This document shows, one piece after another, positions 4,417-58,271 of a stretch of DNA of 64,000 nucleotides (position 1 is the stretch's first letter; the number at the start of each line of letters is the position of its first letter). The translations under genes were made by a program, and so were the position numbers. The DNA comes from Candidatus Kaiserbacteria bacterium (GTDB lineage Bacteria; Patescibacteriota; Minisyncoccia; Phycocordibacterales; UBA2100): positions 41,074-105,073 of the forward strand of contig JACROD010000014.1 of NCBI GenBank assembly GCA_016214605.1, read 5' to 3'. Below the pieces are notes generated by a model. That model was not told where the DNA came from, made no database searches, and worked only from the letters and a program-made list of their open reading frames with translations.

Positions 4417-5183
4417 TGAGCCTTTTTATCATAAAAACGTCTCCCAGCCAAGTATTCTTGCGCGATCATAAAAAGATTACTCGTCACATAGTAGAGCGGA
4501 GCGGCGGCGGCGACCACATAGACCACAAAACCAATAACAAGAGGGAGCATGTAGCGCACCTGGAGGTCGAAGCTTTTAGCCATATCGTTTGAAAGAGACT
4601 CTTCTACAGCTGTTTTACCTGCCCGCGGCCCCATAGAGAGGCGAGAATATATCATTTGGGTCGCTACCGTGAGTATGGCAAGCACTATATTGTGTTTTGC
4701 GCCCACATCTATGACGCCCAAGAACATCATATTGACTGTTTCCGGACGCGGCACAAAACTATACAAAACGGCCTCATTGAGGTGCGGGAGCCCACCCATG
4801 GCAAATATCCAGTAGAGGGCGATCAAAATGGGTAACTGGACCAACATAAGCCCAAGGCCGGCAAAAGGGTGTATATCGTGCTCTTTATAGAAGGCAAAAA
4901 CAGCTTGGGTCTGTTCTGGGGAATTCTTTTTATATTTTTTCTTCAGCTCTTCCACTGCAGGAACGGCTTTTTTCATTGCGATCTGGGATTGGATAGCGCG
5001 TTTTGAAAGAGGGTAAACGACCAATCGTACCAAAATCGTCAATAAGACGATCGCGATACCTACATCATGGCTGGGGATATGGTCGACCAAAAAAATAAGC
5101 CCGTTGTAGAGAGGGTTATAGACCACTGCATGGAAGGTGCTCGATATCATAAGGGAATTGTAGCCTGGAAAGGTGTTTATCAA
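4413..5183 (-). CDS. yidC: membrane protein insertase YidC (short form)
   Basis: 256 aa multi-TM YidC/Oxa1-like sequence; conserved rnpA-yidC-jag order. Confidence 0.85.
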   Translation of the reverse strand: MINTFPGYNSLMISSTFHAVVYNPLYNGLIFLVDHIPSHDVGIAIVLLTILVRLVVYPLSKRAIQSQIAMKKAVPAVEELKKKYKKNSPEQTQAVFAFYKEHDIHPFAGLGLMLVQLPILIALYWIFAMGGLPHLNEAVLYSFVPRPETVNMMFLGVIDVGAKHNIVLAILTVATQMIYSRLSMGPRAGKTAVEESLSNDMAKSFDLQVRYMLPLVIGFVVYVVAAAAPLYYVTSNLFMIAQEYLAGRRFYDKKAQ

Positions 5184-29698: not shown

Positions 29699-29715
29699 TG
29701 GGTAAACTGGTTGCT

Positions 29716-30032
29716 CTTGTGGTCAGGGATAATTCGATCGCCGTCGCGATCGAATTTCCCCGACCCGGCCTCGCGGCTCGGCCTACTGGCCTCGCATCGC
29801 TCCGGCTCGCACTCGTAGACAAAAACAGCCCGCAAGTAGGTGTTTCCTTGTGGTCACAGATAATTCGTTTGCCGTCGCAAACGAATTTCCGCGAAGCTTT
29901 GCACTTGGTTTTCTAATTCGCTTCGCTCATAACAAAACCTACGCCCGCCTCGCGGTCTCGCCTACTGGCTCGACAACGCTCTGTCTCGCACATGTACACA
30001 AAAACAGTGCGCAGGCACTGTTTTTGGTCATG
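29716..30032. repeat. two tandem copies (A 29716-29846, B 29847-30032) of a hairpin-bearing repeat family located 3' of tRNA genes
   Basis: each copy begins cttgtggtcaNNgataa + 10-bp hairpin with loop ccgtcg, then conserved GC-rich core, then hairpin 2 plus T-run; third copy at 35384-35522. Confidence 0.8.
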
Positions 30033-35312: not shown

Positions 35313-35383
35313 TTGTAATCAGTAGGCGTATTTCCATGGGGTCGCGCGTACTCGCGCGACATCGCTCCGGCCGGTATATGTCT

Positions 35384-35522
35384 TTCATGTGGTCACGGAT
35401 AAATGAGTCGTCGTCACGACTCATTTTCCGCGACCCCGGCTCGCGGCTCGGCCTGCCGGCCTCGCAGCGCTGCGCCCGGCACATGCACCGAAAAACAGCA
35501 CGCAGGTGCTGTTTTTCTGTCA
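35384..35522. repeat. copy C of the tRNA-flank repeat family
   Basis: catgtggtcacggataa + hairpin aaatgagtcgt/acgactcattt, conserved ggctcgcggctcggcctgccggcctcgca core, hairpin aaaaacagcac-gcag-gtgctgttttt. Confidence 0.8.
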
Positions 35523-35594
35523 TGTGCCCCCGGCAGGAATCGAACCTGCATTACGAGCTCCGCAAGCTCGCGTTCTATCCATTAAACTACGGGA
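35523..35594 (-). tRNA. tRNA-Arg (anticodon GCG, unusual)
   Basis: 72-nt cloverleaf; anticodon arm cgagc-ttgcgga-gctcg; T-loop ttcgatt. Confidence 0.7.
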
Positions 35595-42305: not shown

Positions 42306-42366
42306 TCCGGAATGCCTGCGTACAGGTGCAAGTGAAATATATCCGAGCGAGAAGTGTATAATAGTA

Positions 42367-42410
42367 TGACAAACTCGCTTCCGACCCCGAAGCGAGTTTG
42401 TCATTTTTAG
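42367..42410 (+). terminator. rho-independent terminator
   Basis: perfect 15-bp stem tgacaaactcgcttc / gaagcgagtttgtca, loop cgacccc, then TTTTT. Confidence 0.65.
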
Positions 42411-45496: not shown

Positions 45497-45820
45497 ATGA
45501 ACATCTTTCATCACATCAAACATCTACGCACCTATTCTTCCGAGCCGGAATATGCCCGCACGCTTTTTGTCTGGTACTGGCAGGTGCTCGTAGTGAGCAT
45601 GTTTGGCTTAGTGGTGTGTGTGTTTGTTTATGGGGGATGGCAGCTTTTTACCGTTATGAACGATGCCTCATCCGAACAGTCGAATACAACGATCGGCACA
45701 AAAAGCACTCCCATAAACTCTCTGCAGGTAGACATGGTCCTTCAGGGATTTGCAGAGCGACAGGCTCAGTTTGAAACCTACAAAGCGACCACGACCCGCA
45801 TCATCGACCCGAGTCTATAA
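45497..45820 (+). CDS. small membrane protein (pilus-cluster associated)
   Basis: 107 aa from internal ATG; one TM helix. Confidence 0.35.
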   Translation: MNIFHHIKHLRTYSSEPEYARTLFVWYWQVLVVSMFGLVVCVFVYGGWQLFTVMNDASSEQSNTTIGTKSTPINSLQVDMVLQGFAERQAQFETYKATTTRIIDPSL

Positions 45821-45869
45821 GGTAAGGTCGCGTTGACCGCAGCCCTCGGTGCGCATACGATAGGCAGAC

Positions 45870-45941
45870 GCCCTTGTAGTTCAATGGATAGAACACCGGA
45901 CTTCTAAGCCGGCTATGGAGGTTCGATTCCTCCCGAGGGCA
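45870..45941 (+). tRNA. tRNA-Arg (anticodon TCT)
   Basis: 72 nt; anticodon loop cttctaa; T arm ggagg-ttcgatt-cctcc. Confidence 0.85.
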
Positions 45942-46085
45942 CTACTTCGCTCCGAAGCTTCGCAACGGAGCTTCGAAGTGCACGGCACTACAAATACCCA
46001 TATTACGTTGTTACCCTACAAGCGAAGTAGCCCTTCGTAGCTCAGTAGAGCGAAGGAGGGCATATTTGTGGCACGTACAACCGTG

Positions 46086-46333
46086 TTTGACAAATAGGTA
46101 TCAAGTATGCTACACTATCCAGTAGTTAGAACCTTGAAACAGAGCCAAGAAAAAGGCCGAACTACATAGGTGTAACCTATGTAGTGAATGTGCCACAGCA
46201 GAAAGCGACTCTCAAGGAGCTACGGCTCCGAGGTGCCGAATTCAGCAGAATTCGGCCAAAACATGGGTACTTTTCTGCTGTGGCAAGCCTTGGATGGTCC
46301 AAGGAACCGGCAGTACAACAAAAGGAGCTGACC
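46086..46333 (+). promoter_or_regulatory. promoter (TTGACA-17-CTACACT) and about 210-nt highly structured 5' leader of the DGR target gene
   Basis: hairpins ctacatagg/cctatgtag (46162-46184), 12-bp ccacagcagaaa/tttctgctgtgg (46193-46204 with 46272-46283), gccgaattc/gaattcggc (46235-46256), ggagc/gctcc, ccttgg/ccaagg; SD AGGAG at 46323-46327. Confidence 0.45.
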
Positions 46334-46906
46334 ATGTCACAGGACATGCTCGGTGGCTCAGGTGAAGACCTCGGCCTCATTATCGACTTCACGCAGAAGT
46401 TGCGTCATGGGGGGAGTGATTTTCGCGAAGCGGCGAAAAAGTTTCTCCGCAAGACACTTGTTACTTTGACGCTCGGCGACGGGCAAACAAAGACGCAGTT
46501 GCTTGCCGCCTACAACTGGGTCAGTGATGTCGCCCGCGCGTTTGTCATGTCGGAGCAGTTCCGCATGGCCTTTGTGCGCGAAGACGCCGACCTCGAGTTC
46601 GTCGAAGGCAGTGATTTCGATCACGATCCGTCCTCGGAAGAAGTACTCACCGAGCTCAAAAGGCGCGGCCTCGAAGAGCCGACCGAGGAAGATGCTCTGC
46701 GTTACGGTGCCACTTGCCCCGAAGGCAAGGACAAGCGCGCAGTGGTCTTCTTGCACAAGGCGAATCTATGGCGTGACCCGGGCGGCCACCTGGGCGTGTT
46801 GGTCTTCGACTGGGGTGGTTCGAAGCGCTACCTGGGCTGCTACCGGTTCGACGACCCGTGGTATCGGCAGCGCTCTCGGTTCGCCGGGCGCCGTCCCCGC
46901 AAGTAG
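46334..46906 (+). CDS. DGR target protein with C-terminal variable repeat (C-type-lectin/FGE-like fold expected)
   Basis: ATG with AGGAG SD inside track ORF 46184..46906 (track start is GTG inside leader hairpins); C-terminal 45 aa encoded by VR. Confidence 0.7.
   Translation: MSQDMLGGSGEDLGLIIDFTQKLRHGGSDFREAAKKFLRKTLVTLTLGDGQTKTQLLAAYNWVSDVARAFVMSEQFRMAFVREDADLEFVEGSDFDHDPSSEEVLTELKRRGLEEPTEEDALRYGATCPEGKDKRAVVFLHKANLWRDPGGHLGVLVFDWGGSKRYLGCYRFDDPWYRQRSRFAGRRPRK
46768..46902 (+). repeat. DGR variable repeat (VR)
   Basis: 135 nt matching TR 47243-47377 with about 17 mismatches, every one at a position that is A in TR. Confidence 0.85.
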
Positions 46907-46990
46907 CGCTTGGCCCTCGCACCTGTGCACTTGCACTCGGGCTTTTGCTCTTTGTCCTCGCGTCAGAAATGATGCGAGGGCTTTTGTTTG
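46904..46990 (+). other. GC-rich hairpin/terminator immediately 3' of VR
   Basis: gccctcgca (46912-46920) pairs with tgcgagggc (46970-46978), then TTTTGTTT; inner gtgca-ct-tgcac hairpin. Confidence 0.5.
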
Positions 46991-47242
46991 GTATAGTGAG
47001 AACGGTAGTAGGCGAATCTGCCGCAGATCACGGTTTGTGGCGGCTGAATCCAGTATCCTTCAGTCCGGAGCCGCAGAGATTACGGTCGATGCGGGAGCGA
47101 CTGTCGATATTCAAAAAACGAAGATACTTGGCGTGCGATGTCAGGGCATTACGATGCCGAATACGATACAGCCCGGAGAGTATTCGATGGGTGGTGGTAT
47201 CCGAGAATATCGGATGACAGGCATGGACGCCATTGCACGCAA

Positions 47243-47377
47243 ATGGCGTGACCCGAACGGCAACCTGAACGTGTTGGTCTTCGACTGGGATGGTTCGAAG
47301 CGCAACCTGAACTACAACCGGTTCGACAACCCGTGGAATCGGCAGAACTATCGGTTCGCCGGGCGCCGTCCCCGCAA
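47243..47377 (+). repeat. DGR template repeat (TR), adenine-rich (AAC codons)
   Basis: frame encodes N-rich peptide NGNLNVLVFDWDGSKRNLNYNRFDNPWNRQNY…; identical 3' end ggttcgccgggcgccgtccccgcaa shared with VR (IMH-like). Confidence 0.85.
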
Positions 47378-47407
47378 CTCTCTTCATTTCCCGACATATT
47401 CTCAAAC

Positions 47408-47758
47408 TCAAGAATGTGTCGGGTTTTGTTTTGTCAGTTGCCCCTGCCAGCCTCCGAGCATTTTGCCGATTTCGTCGCATTGCAGAGAAAGCGCGGCATA
47501 TTTTTTGTTGTCGAGAGACTTGCTTTCCCAGAGGATGAGGAGCAGGAGCTTTATGGTATCGAATTTGCGTATTGCGGTGCGCAGGTACGGCAATTTCTCT
47601 TGTTTGGCCAAGAATGCGGCAGCCGAAACCATCTCCATCACTTCGACGAACAGCATATCTACTTTTGATCCGACAGTGTACTGATGCAGTTTGGGCAAGG
47701 TAGAATGATACTCATGCCACAACAAATAAGCCTGTTTGATCCGCTCCAGAAGGGGCAA
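47408..47758 (-). CDS. avd: accessory variability determinant (Avd, four-helix-bundle family)
   Basis: 116 aa; C-terminal CDEIGKMLGGWQGQLTKQN parallels Bordetella bAvd AEVGRILGSWIARVNRKGQ; track start is TTG. Confidence 0.65.
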   Translation of the reverse strand: MPLLERIKQAYLLWHEYHSTLPKLHQYTVGSKVDMLFVEVMEMVSAAAFLAKQEKLPYLRTAIRKFDTIKLLLLILWESKSLDNKKYAALSLQCDEIGKMLGGWQGQLTKQNPTHS

Positions 47759-47763
47759 GAGTC

Positions 47764-48837
47764 GTGCGGGGGGGGGGGTACGCCTCTAGGATTGTTTTCA
47801 CTCATACCTACGAGGATATCATCTCTGTAGAAAATCTCCTTGCCGCGTGGCAAGAGTTCGTCCGCGGCAAGCGCCAGAAGCGAGATGTGCAGGATTTCCA
47901 ACATCGCCTGATGGACAACATCCTCGCGCTCCATCGCGATTTGAAAAACAAAACGTACCGTCATGGCGCATACGAAGCCTTCAAGATCAATGACCCGAAG
48001 CCGCGCGACATACACAAGGCGACCGTGCGCGATCGGCTCCTGCACCATGCGCTCTATCGCCAGCTCTACCCCTTTTTCGACCGCACCTTTATCGCGGATT
48101 CGTATTCATGCAGAAAAGGTAAGGGGACGCACAAGGCGATGGATCGGTTTCGGTCATTTGCATACCAAGCGAGCAAGAATCATACGCGTACTGTCTGGGT
48201 GCTCAAATGCGACATCAGGAAGTTCTTCGCATCAATAGATCAAGCAATACTACTCAACATCGTCGAGAAATACATTCCCGACAAAGACATCAACTGGCTC
48301 ATCAGTGAGATCGTCGTGAGTTTCCAGACCCACACAACTATGCCTATAGGACGATCTGTGTGTATGGGGAGAAAAGGCCTGCCTGACCAGCAGGCAGGTT
48401 TGCCGCTCGGCAATCTCACCTCGCAACTGCTCGTGAACATCTATATGAACGAATTCGACCAGTTCGTGAAGCACAAGCTCAAAGTGAAACATTACGTGCG
48501 CTATGCCGATGATTTTGTGGTCCTTTCGCATGATCGCGCAGAGCTCGATCGGCTCCTTTCCAAGATCGAATCTTTTTTGCAAGATAAACTCAAATTACAA
48601 TTACATCCCGACAAGGTTTCGATCTCAACATTCGCCTCAGGAGTGGACTTCCTTGGATGGGTGCATTTTCCCGATCATCGCGTATTGCGGACGAGTACGA
48701 AACGACGGATGATGCGAGGTATTGTCGGACTGGAAAAAGATGATATGCGCGTACGGTCGTACCTCGGACTGCTTTTGCACGGAAATGCAGGAAGGCTTGC
48801 AGTATGTGTTGATTCTCTATGCACACCGCTTGCATAG
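47764..48837 (+). CDS. DGR reverse transcriptase
   Basis: 357 aa; RT motifs including YADDFVV (YxDD) and GLPLGNLTSQLL; N-terminal ENLLAAWQEFVRGKRQKRD typical of DGR RTs; track start GTG. Confidence 0.85.
   Translation: MRGGGYASRIVFTHTYEDIISVENLLAAWQEFVRGKRQKRDVQDFQHRLMDNILALHRDLKNKTYRHGAYEAFKINDPKPRDIHKATVRDRLLHHALYRQLYPFFDRTFIADSYSCRKGKGTHKAMDRFRSFAYQASKNHTRTVWVLKCDIRKFFASIDQAILLNIVEKYIPDKDINWLISEIVVSFQTHTTMPIGRSVCMGRKGLPDQQAGLPLGNLTSQLLVNIYMNEFDQFVKHKLKVKHYVRYADDFVVLSHDRAELDRLLSKIESFLQDKLKLQLHPDKVSISTFASGVDFLGWVHFPDHRVLRTSTKRRMMRGIVGLEKDDMRVRSYLGLLLHGNAGRLAVCVDSLCTPLA
47768..47778 (+). repeat. G11 homopolymer tract within codons 2-5 of the RT ORF
   Basis: gtg cgg ggg ggg ggg tac. Confidence 0.8.
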
Positions 48838-48867
48838 AGTGCGGGGAAACAATGCTATGCTTTCGTT

Positions 48868-49020
48868 ATGAAATTCATGCAATCCGGTATTTTGCCACTC
48901 ATCGGCGCGATGATCGTTTTTGGCGTATCGCTCTGGGATTCCGCAATGACACTCGAAGCCGCGCTCGGTGTCCTGATCTTCCTATCGCTTTATCTGTTCC
49001 TTTTCAACAAGACCGGATAG
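48868..49020 (+). CDS. small membrane protein (50 aa)
   Basis: MKFMQSGILPLIGAMIVFGVSLWDSAMTLEAALGVLIFLSLYLFLFNKTG, not in track. Confidence 0.25.
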   Translation: MKFMQSGILPLIGAMIVFGVSLWDSAMTLEAALGVLIFLSLYLFLFNKTG

Positions 49021-49216
49021 AGTTTTTTACTATTCCCCAAAACGGTGGGATCTGTGTGCATCCGGAAGAGGTCGCGCAACCAAAAAGCCTCTGGCGATAC
49101 GCAAAACCAATTGTCCACAAATTCTTGCGATTTTCATCTTAGAAGTGTATTATGATCGTGTGTCCGTGGGCGCAAGCCTATTTCGGATAAGGAATTCCAA
49201 AGCCGAGGCGGACACA

Positions 49217-49663
49217 TCAGGTACCCTCTACATCTGTTGTTGTAGGGGGTTTTTGATTTTCGCCCAATTTCATCACGCTCCAAAACTGGATTTGACCCTT
49301 GCCTACGCGTCGCAGGACAATGCGCAGTTTGGTGTTTTGTTTCCCGACAACGGCAACCAGAGTCCAATATTCAATCTCTGCGAATACCTTTTTCCTGCTA
49401 CCTCCTATGGGGGAATAACGGCGTTCATAATTGTCTACCTTTTTAGCGTTGTAGATCACGGGGCGTATCAAGGGCACAAGGCCAAGTTTATACATCGCCT
49501 CTTTTGGATTTCTTGGGGTATTGTCTACCTTGAAACGTAGGTGGTTAAATCCTGCCATTGTGAAAATCACATATTCCCTCAGTGCGGGGCAATACATGGG
49601 AGTAAAGGTCTTAAACATGGCCTTACGTTCAAGAAGAAGTATTACGAATGGACTTGCCGACAT
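49217..49663 (-). CDS. hypothetical protein (AT-rich locus)
   Basis: 148 aa ORF in an AT-rich segment between the DGR and the giant surface-protein gene. Confidence 0.3.
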   Translation of the reverse strand: MSASPFVILLLERKAMFKTFTPMYCPALREYVIFTMAGFNHLRFKVDNTPRNPKEAMYKLGLVPLIRPVIYNAKKVDNYERRYSPIGGSRKKVFAEIEYWTLVAVVGKQNTKLRIVLRRVGKGQIQFWSVMKLGENQKPPTTTDVEGT

Positions 49664-49702
49664 TCACCGATGTTATCACATGCCAAGTGCTGTTCATAAA
49701 TC

Positions 49703-52700
49703 ATGAGCGGTACGATTACTATTGCTATACTGATACTTGTTATTTTACTCGCCAACGATCTTACTATGAATCATTTCCGTATTGTGCGCTCCGCGGGGGC
49801 TTTTGTGACTGCTATTACTTTTATCTTCGCGCCAATTTCTCCCGCCCTCGCGCTTGGTGAACTGCCGACCGATGTCACGCCACCGATTATCTCTCTGGGT
49901 ACGGTCACTTCGATCGCCACGTCGTCTGCGACTATCACCTGGACGACGAACACGAATGCGGATACGCAAGTCCATTATGGGACGACATCGAGCTACGGTT
50001 CGAGCTCGTCGCTCGATTCGACCCTCGGCCTGACGCACTCGGTGACGCTTGCAAGCCTCTTGCCCAACATGACCTATCACTATCAGATAGCATCGCGCGA
50101 CGCATCTGGAAATCTGACTACTTCTTCCGATGCGACATTCACTACGAACTCATTGCCGGTCGTGGTCATTTCCGACACCACGCCGCCGTTGGTTTCAAAT
50201 ATCGTTGCTGCGACCGTTTCCTCCGTCGCCGAATCAATCGTGTGGACGACCAACGAATTCGCCACCTCGACTATCCGTTGGAGTACTGACACAAGCTACT
50301 CTTCGACGTTTCTCGTATCCGAAACGGCAGGCCCCACTCATGCCGGTGCCTTGGTCGGACTTTCGCCTTCGACCACATACCATTACTGCATCGACGCGAC
50401 CGACCTCGCGGGCAATACCACAAGCTCGTGCGGGCATACGTTTACTACCGCCGAGGCACCTCTCATTCCCGACACGATCGCGCCGGCCATTGTGGATGTC
50501 GCTTCTATGTCGCTTGAGCCGCATACTGCTACCGTGACGTGGACGACGGATGAGCTTGCGGTCTCGACGCTCGAATATGGCACGACGATGAGTTACGGCA
50601 CTTTGGCTACGCTTTCGGCAAGCGCGCTCCTTTCGCACGCGGCCGAGCTCACCGGCCTTACAGCAAACACCACGTATCACTATTGTCTCCACGCGACGGA
50701 TCTCGCGGGGAATATCACGAATTCTTGCGGCCACTCGTTTACCACGGCCGTTGTGGAGGTGATGCTCGACACGAACCCGCCGACCGTCTCGTCAGTTACT
50801 GTCGCGCCTATCACCACGACTTCGGCAACAATAGGGTGGACGACGGACGAGATCTCGGGTGGCTATGTGGAGTACGGCACGACCATCGGCTATGGCTCGG
50901 AGACCGTATTCGATACCAACCTCGCACTTACGCATGAAGCGACTCTTGCAGGACTAACACCCGACACCATCTATCACTACCGTGTCCACTCGCGCGACGA
51001 GGCGGGCAATACCGTGATAACTCCCGATGAGACATTTACGACCCCGCAAAGCGCCTCCGTTACCGCGGGGCAGGCCGCTTCGATACCGATTATCTCGACG
51101 CCTTCCGATACGACCCCGCCTTCGATACGCGAAGTGACTACGAGCTCCATCGGTTCGACCATTACGACGATAAACTGGACGACCAACGAGCTTGCCGTCT
51201 CGACCTTTGACTATGGCACGACACAAAGCCTCGGCTCCCACGCCGAGCTGTCCGGCAGTGGCTTGCTCACGCACGATGCGACCCTCGTGGGGCTTTCTCC
51301 GAGTACGACATACTACTATTGCATCCACGCGACCGATCTTGCGGGCAACGTCGCTGATTCCTGTGGCCATTCATTTGTCACCGGCGCACCTCCGCTCGTC
51401 CCCGACACGACCGCTCCGTCGGCTACCTCCGTCGTCGTTTCGTCGATTATCGCTGACTCCGCGTCGATTCATTGGACGAGCAGCGAGACGGCGGATTCGC
51501 AAGTGCAATACGGCACGACGATCAATTATGGAATGGAGACCCCCATAGAAGCGGAATCAAATTTTTCCGGTACTGCCTCACTGGCTAACCTTGCACTCAA
51601 TACGACGTATCATTTCCGCATCCGCTCATATGATTCGTCGGGGAATGTCGGGCTTTCGAGCGATTATACATTCACGACCGCCGCATCGTCGGGTTCATCT
51701 GGCACGTCCGCAAATGCGGCCCCCATTATCTCAGGGGTTGGCGCGGGTACGATCGGGGAAACGAGCGCGACGATCAATTGGACGACCGATGTGCCAGCCG
51801 ATTCGCTGCTCGAATATGGCAATAGCGAAAACCTCGGTTCCGGTGCGTCGTCCGCCACACTGACGACTTCGCATGCCATAACGCTCACGGGACTTTCGTC
51901 CGACACCAACTATCAATTCCGCGTCATTTCAAAACCGGCCGGCGGCGCTGCATTCCAGACGACCTCGCCAATGCATGAATTCACAACGCTTGCCGTACCC
52001 ATCATCGTCGATCCGGCAGCCAATATCACGTCTGTCTTGGCTCGAGTGGTCGGAAGCGACGCATCCGTATCATTCACTACTGATGAAATGACGACGGGAC
52101 AAATCGAATACGGACTGGATACTTCGTATGGTTCTGCCGTTGCTTGGAGCGAAGGGCGGGAAGCGGGCACGCTCTCGATCCCAGGATTGCAACCGGGGAC
52201 GTACCACTTCCGCGTGAAAGCGATCGATGTGGGCGACAACATTACGTATTCGGAAGACCACACGTTCATGATTGCCGGAAGCTCTTTCGCGACTTCCACA
52301 CAAGCGCAAACTCAAACTTCAGATGGCAGTTCTTCAAGTGTTGCGGCGCCCGCCTCCGCTGTGTCAAGTGCGGCTCTGGCGGGCAATGGCGGAGGCGGCA
52401 GTTTCGCACTCGCCGTCTCGACGCCGGTACCCAACGTCGTCACGGCGGAAGGTGTCGACTCGCAGATCGTGTTCGCGTGGAGGAATCCGGAGACTTCTAA
52501 TTTTGCCGGTACGGTCGTGCTTCGCAAAGCAGGCGGCTACCCAAGCGGTCCACATGACGGGACTGTGATCTACAATGGCTCGGCACAAACATTCACTGAT
52601 ACGTCTCTTACGAACGGGACGACCTACTATTACTCCCTGTATTCATACAATTCAACGAATCAGTATTCCAATCCGATACACGTATCGACTGCGCCGAAAG

Positions 52701-53245
52701 CGGGAGTGACTGAAGTGAAGATTGATAGAAACGTCGTCCTGGAAAACGCGCTTCCGGCGGAACACTTCATGGAGAATTTGAAACTCGGCGACCAGAATCT
52801 CGAAGTGGAACACTTGCAGCAAGTCTTGAACACTGTGAGTCTGCACCAGAGTCGCCTCACAACCGGTTATTTCGGTCCGCTCACACAGGCGGCACTCAAG
52901 AAATTCCAAGCCACGTATAATCTGCCCCAGACGGGAGTGACGGATCCGGCCACGCGTACAGTATTGGATTCGATCTCTCAAGGATGGATGGTTGAAGGCG
53001 CACCCACCGACATAGCGCTCTTGCAAAAAGATCTCAAGCGGGGCGATAGCGGCGATGATGTCGGCAATCTGCAGGAATTTCTGGCCTTCGAAGGAAGTTA
53101 TGACGAGGCGATCATCTCAAGTTATTTTGGCCTGCTTACTCATGGTGGCGTCAAAGACTTCCAGACAAGGTATGGCGTGACCCCCGTTTCCGGTATCGTC
53201 GGACCCAAGACGCGACACACGATACAGACAGTACTGGGACTCTAA
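49703..53245 (+). CDS. giant surface protein with about 9 fibronectin-III-like repeats and two C-terminal peptidoglycan-binding domains
   Basis: 1180 aa; signal peptide; repeated TPP…TWTT…YGTT…Y…THSVTL.GL.P.TTYHY…D.AGN modules; two PG_binding_1-like segments at the C-terminus. Confidence 0.75.
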   Translation: MSGTITIAILILVILLANDLTMNHFRIVRSAGAFVTAITFIFAPISPALALGELPTDVTPPIISLGTVTSIATSSATITWTTNTNADTQVHYGTTSSYGSSSSLDSTLGLTHSVTLASLLPNMTYHYQIASRDASGNLTTSSDATFTTNSLPVVVISDTTPPLVSNIVAATVSSVAESIVWTTNEFATSTIRWSTDTSYSSTFLVSETAGPTHAGALVGLSPSTTYHYCIDATDLAGNTTSSCGHTFTTAEAPLIPDTIAPAIVDVASMSLEPHTATVTWTTDELAVSTLEYGTTMSYGTLATLSASALLSHAAELTGLTANTTYHYCLHATDLAGNITNSCGHSFTTAVVEVMLDTNPPTVSSVTVAPITTTSATIGWTTDEISGGYVEYGTTIGYGSETVFDTNLALTHEATLAGLTPDTIYHYRVHSRDEAGNTVITPDETFTTPQSASVTAGQAASIPIISTPSDTTPPSIREVTTSSIGSTITTINWTTNELAVSTFDYGTTQSLGSHAELSGSGLLTHDATLVGLSPSTTYYYCIHATDLAGNVADSCGHSFVTGAPPLVPDTTAPSATSVVVSSIIADSASIHWTSSETADSQVQYGTTINYGMETPIEAESNFSGTASLANLALNTTYHFRIRSYDSSGNVGLSSDYTFTTAASSGSSGTSANAAPIISGVGAGTIGETSATINWTTDVPADSLLEYGNSENLGSGASSATLTTSHAITLTGLSSDTNYQFRVISKPAGGAAFQTTSPMHEFTTLAVPIIVDPAANITSVLARVVGSDASVSFTTDEMTTGQIEYGLDTSYGSAVAWSEGREAGTLSIPGLQPGTYHFRVKAIDVGDNITYSEDHTFMIAGSSFATSTQAQTQTSDGSSSSVAAPASAVSSAALAGNGGGGSFALAVSTPVPNVVTAEGVDSQIVFAWRNPETSNFAGTVVLRKAGGYPSGPHDGTVIYNGSAQTFTDTSLTNGTTYYYSLYSYNSTNQYSNPIHVSTAPKAGVTEVKIDRNVVLENALPAEHFMENLKLGDQNLEVEHLQQVLNTVSLHQSRLTTGYFGPLTQAALKKFQATYNLPQTGVTDPATRTVLDSISQGWMVEGAPTDIALLQKDLKRGDSGDDVGNLQEFLAFEGSYDEAIISSYFGLLTHGGVKDFQTRYGVTPVSGIVGPKTRHTIQTVLGL

Positions 53246-53298
53246 GGCTTTGATTCGCACCAACCTAACGAAATAAATGGTGGATCGTTGGGAGAATG

Positions 53299-53372
53299 TG
53301 CGCGGTGAGGGATTTGAACCCCCGACCATCGACGTGTAAAGTCGCCGCTCTACCGGCCTGAGCTAACCGCGC
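53299..53372 (-). tRNA. tRNA-Val (anticodon TAC)
   Basis: 74 nt; anticodon arm gcgac-tttacac-gtcga; T-loop ttcaaat. Confidence 0.85.
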
Positions 53373-53467
53373 GTCACTGCACTTTACCGCAGATCAAGGG
53401 AGATAACAAACAGCACCTGTGAATAATATCTCTTGCACATACCAGTCATGGGTTCTAAAATAGTTCA

Positions 53468-54172
53468 ATGCGCAAGCTTGAAAAGATTGAGGCGAGGAGA
53501 CTAAGAAAACAAGGAAAATCAATAAAAGAGATCGAACGACTTATTGGGGTCAGACGATCGAGTGTCAGTGTGTGGGTGAGGGACATCTCTCTCACTGCAG
53601 CACAAAAAAAGAGACTCGCGGGGCGCGGACACTCACTTGAGGTCTCTGAAAAGAGACGGCAAAGTCGTTTGTCGAATGAAACTAAAGTGCGGATGGAGTT
53701 TTTGCATGAGGGGCTCCGAGATATTGAAGTAATGCGAGAGATCGACCTTTTCGCGCTTGGTATGGGGCTCTATTGGGGCGAAGGATCAAAAACGAATCGA
53801 GGGGCCATCGAACTATCAAACACTGACCCACGAATCATTCAGATATATGTGATGTTTCTCACCAAAGTGTGCGGATTTTCAATGGAAAAGCTCCATGCGC
53901 ATATTGGACTGCACTCGCATCTCTCAATTACGAAAGCTGAACACTATTGGTCACGAATATCCGGTATCCCCCTCAGTCAATTTCAAAAGACCTCAATCCA
54001 ACACAGTATCAGTGGCAGGGGCGAAAGAGACCATCTTCCATTCGGGACATTTTCTGTCGGAGTTTACGATACGGCGGCAAGGCTTCGACTGGAGGGGTGG
54101 ACGCAAGGTATCTATAAAAAACTTTTTCCAAGCCAGAGCGCCCTCCATGACCTAACCAAATTGCGCGTATAA
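53468..54172 (+). CDS. LAGLIDADG-type homing-endonuclease-like protein with N-terminal HTH
   Basis: AT-rich; LFALGMGLYWGEGSK LAGLIDADG-like motif; N-terminal KSIKEIERLIGVRRSSVSVWVR HTH. Confidence 0.45.
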   Translation: MRKLEKIEARRLRKQGKSIKEIERLIGVRRSSVSVWVRDISLTAAQKKRLAGRGHSLEVSEKRRQSRLSNETKVRMEFLHEGLRDIEVMREIDLFALGMGLYWGEGSKTNRGAIELSNTDPRIIQIYVMFLTKVCGFSMEKLHAHIGLHSHLSITKAEHYWSRISGIPLSQFQKTSIQHSISGRGERDHLPFGTFSVGVYDTAARLRLEGWTQGIYKKLFPSQSALHDLTKLRV

Positions 54173-54219
54173 GGATATTTGTCTTTTGAAAGGCTTAATG
54201 CTATAGTGTCCGTCACTGT

Positions 54220-54678
54220 ATGGAAAACGTGATCAAGGTATCAGGAGTCGACATGGAGGCGCGCAAGGCGCTTGGTATTCGCGCAGGCGATACCGTCCGT
54301 GTATGGCAAAAGATCGAGGAAAAGGGCAAAATCCGCCTCCAGGCTTTTGAGGGCCTTGTCCTTGCGGTCAAGCATGGTTCTGAGGCTGGCGGCACCTTTA
54401 CGGTGCGTCGCGTGGCTTCCGGCGTCGGCGTCGAGAAGATCTTCCCGCTTTATTCTCCTATGATCGACAAGATCCAGATCATCAAGCGTGCGACCGTCCG
54501 TAGCTCCAAGCTCTACTACATCCGTGAAAAGGTTTCGCGCGAAGCCCGCCGTCTCTTGCGTCGTACGCGCATGATGGGACAGACCACATCCGACCTTGAA
54601 AAAGGGGAGGAGGTCCCTGTTGATGAATCCACCACCGAAGTCGAAGCAGGGTCGGTGGCCGAAGTCGCTGCTGAGTAA
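54220..54678 (+). CDS. rplS: 50S ribosomal protein L19 with acidic C-terminal extension
   Basis: …RAGDTVRVWQKIEEKGKIRLQAFEGLVLAVKH… L19 pattern. Confidence 0.8.
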   Translation: MENVIKVSGVDMEARKALGIRAGDTVRVWQKIEEKGKIRLQAFEGLVLAVKHGSEAGGTFTVRRVASGVGVEKIFPLYSPMIDKIQIIKRATVRSSKLYYIREKVSREARRLLRRTRMMGQTTSDLEKGEEVPVDESTTEVEAGSVAEVAAE

Positions 54679-57713: not shown

Positions 57714-58271
57714 ATGTCTTTTTTCACCGGCAAAGGAGATGGGGGGACGACGAAGCTTTTTGACTCGCCACAAGGGGTGAGAGTCTCCAAATCCTCACCG
57801 ATCTTCGAGTGTTTGGGTCAGCTCGACGAGCTCAATAGTATTACCGGGTGGTGTAAGGTCGCTTGTCCCGACGATCTCTCGATCGACGGACGCTTGGGCA
57901 AAGATATTCTTCGCGAAGTACAGAACCATCTTTTTACCATTCAGGCTGAGGTCGCTGGTGCGCCCAAGAGCGTGCCGCCCGAGAGTGTCGAAGAGGTGAG
58001 TGCACTCATCAAAAGCATCGAATCACAATTACCCGAGGTGAAGAGTTTTCTCGTGCCGGGTGGGACGGAATTCTCCGCGCGCCTCGATATCGCCCGGGCG
58101 ATATCGAGGCGCGCGGAGCGCCGACTCGTAATGCTTCACGAGTCGGGGGAGCGCGCCGTATCCGAGTCGAGCCGCGCGTATGCCAACAGACTCTCGTCAC
58201 TTTTTTATGCGTTCACACGATTTACAAATCATCATTTCAGCGTGATAGAATATCCGCCGGAGTATAAGTGA
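57714..58271 (+). CDS. PduO-type ATP:cob(I)alamin adenosyltransferase-family protein
   Basis: N-terminus MSFFTGKGDGGTTKLF characteristic of PduO/MMAB family. Confidence 0.7.
   Translation: MSFFTGKGDGGTTKLFDSPQGVRVSKSSPIFECLGQLDELNSITGWCKVACPDDLSIDGRLGKDILREVQNHLFTIQAEVAGAPKSVPPESVEEVSALIKSIESQLPEVKSFLVPGGTEFSARLDIARAISRRAERRLVMLHESGERAVSESSRAYANRLSSLFYAFTRFTNHHFSVIEYPPEYK

Follow-up and report, generated by a model that had tools for sequence, protein, structure and literature searches.

Diversity-generating retroelements (DGRs) are very common in the Candidate Phyla Radiation (CPR; Patescibacteria). To our knowledge, almost nothing is known about how their target genes are expressed, least of all in these uncultivated bacteria. 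In a contig of Candidatus Kaiserbacteria, a member of the CPR, a DGR target gene lies just downstream of a tRNA-Arg(TCT) gene, and the interval between the two is crowded with inverted repeats. What is this interval? A preliminary description of the sequence had offered two answers: a scar left by the integration of a mobile element, or a cis-regulatory RNA that controls the target gene. We analysed a 64-kb stretch of the contig that includes the interval (the window); all positions given below are window coordinates.

The density of structure noted in the preliminary description is real. Every element that it listed is present, and the minimum free energy (MFE) of 45943-46334 is -157.4 kcal/mol, against -104.8 +/- 5.6 kcal/mol for dinucleotide shuffles (z = -9.3; 0 of 100 shuffles folded as well). 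Perfect hairpins of at least 9 bp are scarce, with about 20 sites in the 64-kb window, and two of these fall within the leader of the target gene. The best match to a sigma-70-type promoter between 45400 and 49000 (3.6 kb) divides the interval into a 144-nt post-tRNA spacer and a leader of about 210 nt. Folded by themselves and compared with shuffles, both halves are significant: z = -7.8 for the leader and z = -5.1 for the spacer. Here we report that the interval is probably a composite of two unrelated pieces, an expression signal for the DGR target gene (46087-46354) and non-conserved junction DNA (45943-46086). The first includes a previously undescribed yet conventional cis-regulatory leader with a start-codon hairpin, found in a small Patescibacterial family of DGR targets. 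The second, the spacer, is ordinary, unconserved junction DNA.

The promoter, the leader and the gene that they serve are laid out as follows (SD, Shine-Dalgarno sequence; P1, P2 and P3, leader helices):

46063-46096, plus strand: hairpin of the MFE structure with the -35 box in its 3' arm, relevant only to read-through transcripts from the tRNA promoter
46087-46116, plus strand: sigma-70-type promoter of the DGR target gene, TTGACA, 18 nt, TG-n-TACACT (10/12, plus an extended -10)
46128-46157, plus strand: diverged copy of a conserved 5' element, which in the relatives reads (C)CUUUGUUCUUUGAGAAAAGG, is CU-rich and is complementary to the SD
46161-46185, plus strand: perfect 11-bp hairpin, inserted between the 5' element and P1 in the window only
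46191-46285, plus strand: long P1/P2 hairpin, with P1 at 46191-46204/46272-46285 and P2 as ACUC 46208-46211/GGGU 46265-46268
46216-46229, plus strand: inner hairpin GGAGC/GCUCC, in the P2 apical-loop insertion
46235-46256, plus strand: inner 9-bp hairpin GCCGAATTC, in the same insertion
46288-46304, plus strand: P3 hairpin CCUUGGA-UGG-UCCAAGG, 7-bp stem
46322-46327, plus strand: SD, AAGGAG, within the conserved string AAGGAG(C/G)UGAC(C/U)AUG
46327-46354, plus strand: start-codon hairpin GCUGA-C-CAUGUC-ACAG-GACAUG-C-UCGGU, with the AUG (46334-46336) inside the stem
46334-46906, plus strand: DGR target gene, 190 aa, no Pfam domain; the protein is identical to HZC00_01990

Transcription is predicted to start near 46123, which would give a 5' untranslated region (UTR) of about 210 nt. 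The pattern TTG..TAnnnT recurs at the equivalent place in five homologous loci, and the window's promoter aligns with the TTGACA/TATAAT boxes of L005, L006, L030, L033 and L034. No intrinsic terminator (a GC-rich hairpin followed by a U-tract) occurs within 45943-46334; the scan does find terminator-like hairpins at 46954-46981 and 47390-47423. The stem said earlier to span 12 bp around two perfect inner hairpins does enclose them, but it is 14-15 bp long. A small open reading frame (ORF) or leader peptide was considered and rejected: because window-specific insertions create or break up the ORFs of at least 20 aa found in this interval, none is conserved. Nor did the Rfam search suggested in the preliminary description return anything relevant for the interval at E values up to 10. 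Over the whole window, only tRNAs pass the gathering threshold of Rfam 15, and over 45700-46500 an E value of up to 10 admits only the chance matches mir-2253 and CPEB3 (minus strand, 11.5 bits).

Is the leader conserved? Homologues of the target protein form 21 clusters (P0001-P0021), which we traced to their contigs; the leader comparison leaves out the closest of them (P0002, P0005 and P0010), which lie on short contigs. From the leader through the reverse transcriptase (RT) gene, the homologous cassettes (target, template repeat (TR), avd on the minus strand, RT) are 75-79% identical to the window DNA. The gene upstream of the cassette varies by locus: RF-1, YafQ, a response regulator, a pterin-4a dehydratase or HisRS. 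The conserved leader core thus travels with the DGR cassette whatever its genomic site. The window and five relatives (L005, L006, L030, L033 and L034), six loci in all, share the same order of promoter, 5' element, P1/P2, P3-type hairpin, SD and AUG hairpin. In this shared order the long hairpin has the consensus UGCCAyrGCwGAAA ... UUUCwGCyrUGGCA with a small inner stem, and the leader closes with a second small hairpin, an A-rich linker and then AAAGGAGCUGACCAUG. P3 itself is kept in L006, L030 and L034; other small hairpins take its place in L033 and L005.

The stems of the leader covary. This is what emerged when homologous loci were aligned, a check that the preliminary description had proposed. 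By RNAalifold and pair counts, pairing in P1/P2/P3 extends to 93.6% of the cells, compared with 32-54% after the partners have been slid. Five pairs in P1-P3 are altered on both sides (for example A-U to G-C, A-U to U-A, and A-U/G-C/C-G), and the covariation score is reached by 0 of 500 shuffles. The P1/P2 helix by itself has 94.7% of its cells paired and four pairs altered on both sides. Two G-U pairs are invariant across all six sequences, and one U-A pair becomes U-G. Because the invariant G-U pairs would be C-A mismatches on the opposite strand, an RNA on the plus strand is favoured. Finally, a covariance model (R1) built from the five relatives, with the window excluded, matches window 46176-46336 with 63.7 bits (E = 5.6e-11). 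Its alignment places P1, P2, P3 and the SD and assigns the window a 49-nt insertion in the apical loop.

A second type of leader occurs in more distant target homologues (L001, L009, L011, L019, L022, L023 and L032), at about 70-130 nt ahead of the target gene. It opens with (G)GCUGAUGG or GGCUGGCG right after the -10 box and has hairpins of its own. For L001, L011 and L032, the SD-to-AUG string and the start-codon hairpin were confirmed. Among viral contigs, a protein-pattern scan gave no relatives, and the leader DNA pattern gave five chance matches, all without the hairpin.

The start-codon hairpin came to light when leaders were folded jointly with the first codons. Its general form is GCUGA-C-CAUGNn...nNCAUG-C-UCGGU, an 11-bp hairpin, and 11 homologues retain it, some of them at loci labelled Saccharibacteria, Berkelbacteria and Patescibacteria with 39-50% protein identity. 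The string AAGGAG(C/G)UGAC(C/U)AUG likewise survives at that distance. Across the 11 sequences, 94.2% of cells are paired, against 21-40% with slid partners, and three pairs are altered on both sides. Pairs 20/27 and 13/34 covary; the former is found as G-C, U-G, U-A and C-G, and a pair other than 20/27 goes from G-C to A-U. The free energy of the hairpin is about -12 kcal/mol in the four loci tested. The probability that the AUG is unpaired ranges from 0.00 to 0.64 and is at most 0.33 in five of the six leaders.

What might such a leader do? Because the ribosome would have to open a hairpin of about -12 kcal/mol to reach the AUG, translation of the variable protein may be damped or conditionally released. 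The upstream element and the hairpins could stabilise the 5' end of the mRNA, or compete with the initiation region for pairing; P1/P2, close to the 5' end, could itself serve as an mRNA stabiliser. The output of the diversified protein would thereby be set, or conditionally switched, after transcription.

By analogy, we infer that the leader works like the control regions that sequester an SD or AUG and like 5' stabiliser hairpins, although it is a member of no curated family. With the sequestering leaders (ROSE and fourU thermometers, ribosomal-protein and phage operators) it shares a conserved stem of about -12 kcal/mol that holds the AUG and the last SD base, a CU-rich upstream element complementary to AAGGAG, and a structure that covaries among homologues. 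Unlike them, it matches no Rfam sequence or model, and its 14-bp upstream hairpin has no counterpart in those families. Like the stem-loops that stabilise ompA and aprE, it places stable hairpins in the first 20-100 nt of the predicted transcript, at a conserved position relative to the promoter, but in the window the 5'-most element has diverged and been displaced by an insertion. DGRs also have cis-elements of their own: the initiation of mutagenic homing (IMH) sequence, a hairpin or cruciform 3' of the variable repeat (VR), and RNA flanking the TR (Guo et al. 2011, PMC3240598). The leader resembles these in lying within the same cassette, in being inherited with it and in having a GC-containing stem-loop. 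It differs in lying in the 5' UTR, about 430 nt upstream of the VR, and in that a separate terminator-like hairpin (46954-46981) holds the canonical 3' position. We considered the leader as the DGR target-recognition element (IMH plus 3' hairpin) and rejected it on location, since the leader ends about 430 nt before the VR (46768-46902).

Which of the window's hairpins belong to this conserved signal? The proposal of a cis-regulatory RNA is supported for 46117-46354, but not for the perfect inner hairpins or for 46161-46185, which are absent from every relative. In the window, the two perfect inner hairpins lie in extra sequence of about 46-49 nt (about 46212-46260) inserted into the apical loop of P2. 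Neither these (46216-46229 and 46235-46256) nor the hairpin at 46161-46185 has a counterpart in L005, L006, L030, L033 or L034, so all three are lineage-specific insertions and not part of the conserved element. Their positions, in the P2 apical loop and in the linker joining the 5' element to P1, leave the conserved helices intact. A dispersed palindromic repeat, either a repetitive extragenic palindrome or bacterial interspersed mosaic element (REP/BIME) or a miniature inverted-repeat transposable element (MITE), was tried as an explanation and rejected because the inserted hairpins have no second copy in the window: self-blastn of 45943-46334 against the 64-kb window returned only the self match and palindrome matches.

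These extra hairpins would be recent, local palindromic insertions. They partly reuse neighbouring strings, CAGCAGAA from a P1 arm and AAGGAGCU from the SD region; CAGCAGAA and AAGGAGCT each occur twice, although the reused 8-mers are individually not significant. Replication template switching can generate perfect hairpins (Monttinen and Loytynoja 2022, PMC8794818), and either this process or local duplication probably made the ones seen here. The likeness to template-switch hairpins lies in perfect stems confined to one lineage, their placement in loops and linkers, and the partial reuse of neighbouring sequence.

The other half of the interval, upstream of the promoter, has a different character. 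Its features, and those of the larger block of DNA that begins with it, are:

45870-45942, plus strand: tRNA-Arg(TCT) (ARAGORN; Rfam, 67.7 bits), whose 3' end is the exact left edge of the lineage-specific block
45943-46030, plus strand: orphan spacer domain 1, closed by a 10-bp stem (45942-45951/46021-46030); -31.4 kcal/mol, z = -5.8
46030-46061, plus strand: tRNA-like hairpin GCCCTTCGTAGCTCAGTAGAGCGAAGGAGGGC, a two-level fold; -18.7 kcal/mol, z = -5.3
45943-54178, no strand assigned: lineage-specific 8.2-kb block, starting exactly at the tRNA-Arg 3' end and containing the spacer, the DGR (target, TR, bAvd, RT), a 148-aa ORF on the minus strand and a 1180-aa FN3/PG-binding protein
53298-53372, minus strand: divergent tRNA-Val(TAC) within the block, its stems strongly unlike those of the relatives' gene
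53468-54172: 234-aa helix-turn-helix (HTH) ORF, between the inverted tRNA-Val and the rplS promoter, absent from the relatives

The closing stem of domain 1 corresponds to a long-range inverted repeat that had been described as 9 bp long; it is present, but its length is 10 nt (CTACTTCGCT at 45942-45951, AGCGAAGTAG at 46021-46030). Inside it, tandem palindromic 13-mers of the form CTTCGCnnCGrAG (45945-45983) fold as a 10-bp hairpin, accompanied by a small hairpin of the GUGCA/UGCAC type. The 13-mers contain AAGCTT and TTCGAA, the palindromes singled out earlier, and with them the CTTCG/CGAAG motif occurs eight times over the spacer (45943-46086). The adjoining hairpin, which had been likened to a truncated 5' half of a tRNA, has a 7-bp outer stem around a GCUC-AGUA-GAGC stem-loop, that is, a tRNA D-arm minus four loop bases. 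With its flanking UA and G, the inner stem-loop is an exact match to the D-arm consensus, with G18-G19 missing from the loop. The pattern TAGCTCA-N0-8-TAGAGC has four matches in the window (three true tRNAs and this hairpin) where 0.01 would be expected, but the pattern was defined after the sequence had been seen, so this p-value is optimistic. The hairpin and its D-arm consensus thus stand; recognition as a tRNA does not. ARAGORN finds seven tRNAs in the window and none at 46030-46061, and cmscan at E values up to 10 gives no tRNA match on 45700-46500, nor on 46030-46075 alone with truncated matches allowed. The spacer has no plausible ORF, and blastn against 41 related loci, the rest of the window, PLSDB plasmids and INPHARED phages found no match to it. 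Its folding is better on the plus strand (z = -5.1) than on the minus strand (z = -2.65).

Elsewhere, a structured repeat family of about 130-140 nt lies directly 3' of tRNA genes, in the window at 29712-30031 and 35346-35523 (both minus strand) and in relatives at L036:4025-4165 and L039:1014-1056. In the window, tRNA-Lys is followed by two tandem copies and tRNA-Arg(GCG) by at least one; in relatives, copies also follow tRNA-Arg(TCT). In each, a terminator hairpin precedes a GC-rich segment, which is followed by a perfect hairpin of 9-11 bp. No two copies have the same stem in this last hairpin, but the loop (GCGACGGC or GTGACGAC) and the flanks GGAA...ATCCnTGACCACA stay constant. The family has no Rfam match and is unrelated to the hairpins inserted in the leader.

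The block was delimited with five close relatives (L035, L036, L039, L040 and L041), found through homologues of the small protein encoded just upstream of the tRNA. Because their blastn alignments with the window end at 45942 and restart at 54175-54179, ahead of rplS, the interval lies at the border of an 8.2-kb block. In L035, L040 and L041 the order is tRNA-Arg, 22 nt, tRNA-Val(TAC) on the plus strand, a short spacer and rplS. The distance from tRNA-Arg(TCT) to rplS is thus 119 nt, including the plus-strand tRNA-Val, in these three relatives (L035:4603-4721), about 800 nt in L036 (4025-4828) and 8.2 kb in the window. L036 has an intact inverted tRNA-Val and, within L036:4547-4754, fragments of the tRNA-Val 3' end in direct (4558-4571) and inverted (4667-4691) orientation; these may be footprints of inversion or resemble attachment (att) sites. 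Because L036 shows an intermediate rearrangement, with an inverted tRNA-Val and fragments, the tRNA-Arg(TCT)-rplS locus is a rearrangement hot spot. In the present genome the block would have replaced the ancestral tRNA-Val and brought its own divergent, inverted tRNA-Val, which looks like a replacement copy. In the 234-aa ORF only the N-terminal HTH has matches, resembling the N-termini of transposases (IS21, IS3, IS630; E = 4e-5 to 2e-3), and no catalytic domain was detected.

Could the symmetry of the leader reside in DNA and not in RNA? The P1 inverted repeat and the TTCTTTGAGAA element might serve as DNA sites, either operators or a cruciform, to which a regulator or DGR proteins bind. 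An inverted repeat that changes symmetrically would mimic covariation too, and the 5' element, at about +1 to +20, has the classic position of a repressor site and reads in part as a palindrome (TTCT-TTG-AGAA). A DNA hairpin or cruciform close to the VR is indeed used by DGRs, but that structure lies just 3' of the VR, at least about 430 nt downstream of the leader (PMC3240598). The invariant G-U pairs and the change from U-A to U-G, moreover, are tolerated only in plus-strand RNA, and the distance between the P1 arms ranges from 25 nt in the relatives to 67 nt in the window, a variability that is hard to square with a protein operator. A DNA-level element is therefore very unlikely. We also find it quite improbable that the leader is a dedicated riboregulator of the Patescibacterial DGR family, opened by a factor in trans (a ligand, or Avd or RT) and coupling the variable protein, and perhaps mutagenic homing, to a signal. 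A conventional cis-regulatory leader is the reading that we keep.

The spacer would then amount to repeated CTTCG/CGAAG palindromes and a D-arm look-alike hairpin upstream of the target-gene promoter, most likely a by-product of rearrangement that is neither a working RNA nor an att site. What of its resemblance to a tRNA? The segment 46030-46061 might be the leftover 5' half of the ancestral tRNA-Val, dispensable once the block had brought its own tRNA-Val(TAC), with flanks remodelled by palindrome-forming mutations. Relatives do carry a plus-strand tRNA-Val 22 nt past tRNA-Arg; the window is without it, and its own tRNA-Val, encoded 7.3 kb away on the opposite strand, is a very different one; and the hairpin keeps the exact ancestral D-stem and D-loop edges, TAGCTCAG..TAGAGC minus TTGG, found otherwise only in the true tRNAs of the window. 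But beyond these 14 D-arm bases it resembles neither the relatives' tRNA-Val nor the 22-nt spacer (local alignment score 18, against a shuffle mean of 14 and a maximum of 25-31), the D-arm consensus is common to many tRNAs, the acceptor-like arm is closer to tRNA-Arg than to tRNA-Val, and the motif was picked post hoc. A decayed gene is possible but doubtful. If the block were instead an island integrated at the 3' end of tRNA-Arg or into the adjacent tRNA-Val, the spacer would be an att junction, with a binding or crossover site for a recombinase. The edge of the block, which coincides to the base with the tRNA-Arg 3' end, is what such an island would give, as are the block's own divergent tRNA-Val(TAC) and the rearrangement of the same locus in L036, with tRNA-Val 3' fragments beside an inverted tRNA-Val. 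Horizontally transferred elements are known to carry DGRs, and among these elements are islands that excise by means of an integrase (PMC5758913). The usual marks of a tRNA-associated island are missing, however. Second copies of the tRNA-Arg 3' end, of the tRNA-Val 5' and 3' ends, of the relatives' tRNA-Val 3' end and of the tRNA-like hairpin were sought in the 64-kb window at up to three mismatches, and none was found; the partial tRNA-Arg copy that the preliminary description had looked to as a marker of the element's boundary is thus absent from the window. When the left junction was compared by k-mers with 48800-49750 and 53200-54260, no shared repeat of 11 nt or more emerged. No direct repeat of a tRNA 3' segment flanks the block within the window. 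No integrase or recombinase domain appears in the larger ORFs of the block, where Pfam and NCBIfam recognise only bAvd, RVT_1, FN3/PG_binding and HTH (the latter alone in the 234-aa ORF), though the small ORFs were not exhaustively scanned. In addition, the tRNA-like hairpin mimics the 5' part of a tRNA, with its D-arm, whereas att duplications are of the 3' part, and the GC content of the block is not distinctive. Of the proposed integration scar, then, the position at the border of a lineage-specific block stands; the tRNA-fragment copy, junction repeat and integrase were not found, and we consider an att junction unlikely. There is also the possibility that 45943-46086 is a functional trailer, co-transcribed with tRNA-Arg as a terminator, insulator or processing platform that separates the tRNA from the DGR gene, its D-arm or acceptor mimic perhaps recruiting a tRNA-processing enzyme. 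No canonical terminator follows tRNA-Arg, which makes read-through likely; the spacer folds far better on the plus strand; and other tRNAs here and in relatives precede the structured repeats that start with a terminator hairpin. Against this, the spacer is conserved nowhere among the 41 related loci and the window, none of its hairpins has a U-tract, its sequence is unrelated to the tRNA-linked repeats, and no tRNA-processing enzyme is known to use a mimic of acceptor and D-arm. A trailer function is distinctly improbable, and junction DNA remains the preferred reading.

Several observations weigh against this composite of conventional leader and junction DNA. There are just six distinct leaders of this type, and since three of them (L006, L030 and L034) are mutually close, the compensatory changes may amount to perhaps three independent events. 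Conservation of the AUG hairpin may be driven partly by the protein, because the 3' arm codes for the conserved Met-Leu-Gly of Met-x-x-x-Met-Leu-Gly; the compensating changes, however, sit at a wobble position that pairs with the first base of codon 2. An anti-SD pairing, GUUCUUU/AAGGAGC, is predicted by RNAalifold in the relatives, but it is invariant there, model R1 does not reproduce it in the window, and a local 5' hairpin competes with it when single sequences are folded. In the window, the MFE structure computed without the coding sequence pairs GUUAG-AA-CCUU with AAGG-AG-CUGAC. We keep the anti-SD helix as a hypothesis only. The 5' element may be a DNA operator at +1 to +20, and in L013 it apparently lies inside the promoter spacer. 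The transcription start site is a prediction, and transcripts may also read through from the tRNA promoter because no terminator follows tRNA-Arg. For the spacer, the better fold on the plus strand and the improbable D-arm motif leave room for a function or for a tRNA origin.

The rest of the DGR cassette follows the target gene directly; upstream, pilM-like and small membrane-protein genes lie 5' of tRNA-Arg(TCT). The remaining parts of the cassette are:

46768-46902: variable repeat (VR), within the target gene
47243-47377: template repeat (TR); the VR differs from it at TR adenines only
47408-47758, minus strand: bAvd gene
47764-48837: reverse transcriptase (RT) gene

In 46907-47764 the TR is flanked by the two terminator-like hairpins, 46954-46981 and 47390-47423, each with a T-run. 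Because promoter prediction gave no separate promoter for the TR, read-through past the 46954-46981 hairpin could also feed TR RNA, which may thus depend on the target-gene promoter. The avd gene is on the opposite strand and starts 5 nt from the RT start. This DGR layout as a whole is unusual, and it recurs in L002-L004 and L030. The window's target protein and its homologues (P0001-P0021) are about 190 aa long and make up a small family in which neither Pfam nor NCBIfam recognises a domain; they share a conserved RGLEEPTEEDALRYG core, and their C-terminal VR is very short and ends in RFAGRRPRK.

Two other palindromes in the window deserve mention. A perfect 46-nt palindrome with a 21-bp stem, CTCCGCGCGCCTCGATATCGCC-CGGG-..., lies at 58073-58118 next to a 9-bp hairpin (58121-58146), and also occurs in the relative L036 (6043-6088) at 93% identity. 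A perfect 16-bp hairpin, ATGACAAACTCGCTTC...GAAGCGAGTTTGTCAT, lies at 42366-42404, within the short gap that precedes the RuvX-like gene.

For genome scans, the lesson of the interval is that the showiest perfect hairpins are the youngest and least conserved, and that the conserved signal lies in imperfect stems. This DGR occupies a rearrangement hot spot between two tRNA genes, and the cassette brings its promoter and leader along when its genomic context changes. In Kaiserbacteria, Saccharibacteria and Berkelbacteria alike, a leader and start-codon hairpin are passed on as part of the cassette, and they offer a concrete, testable handle on the post-transcriptional control of a diversified protein.

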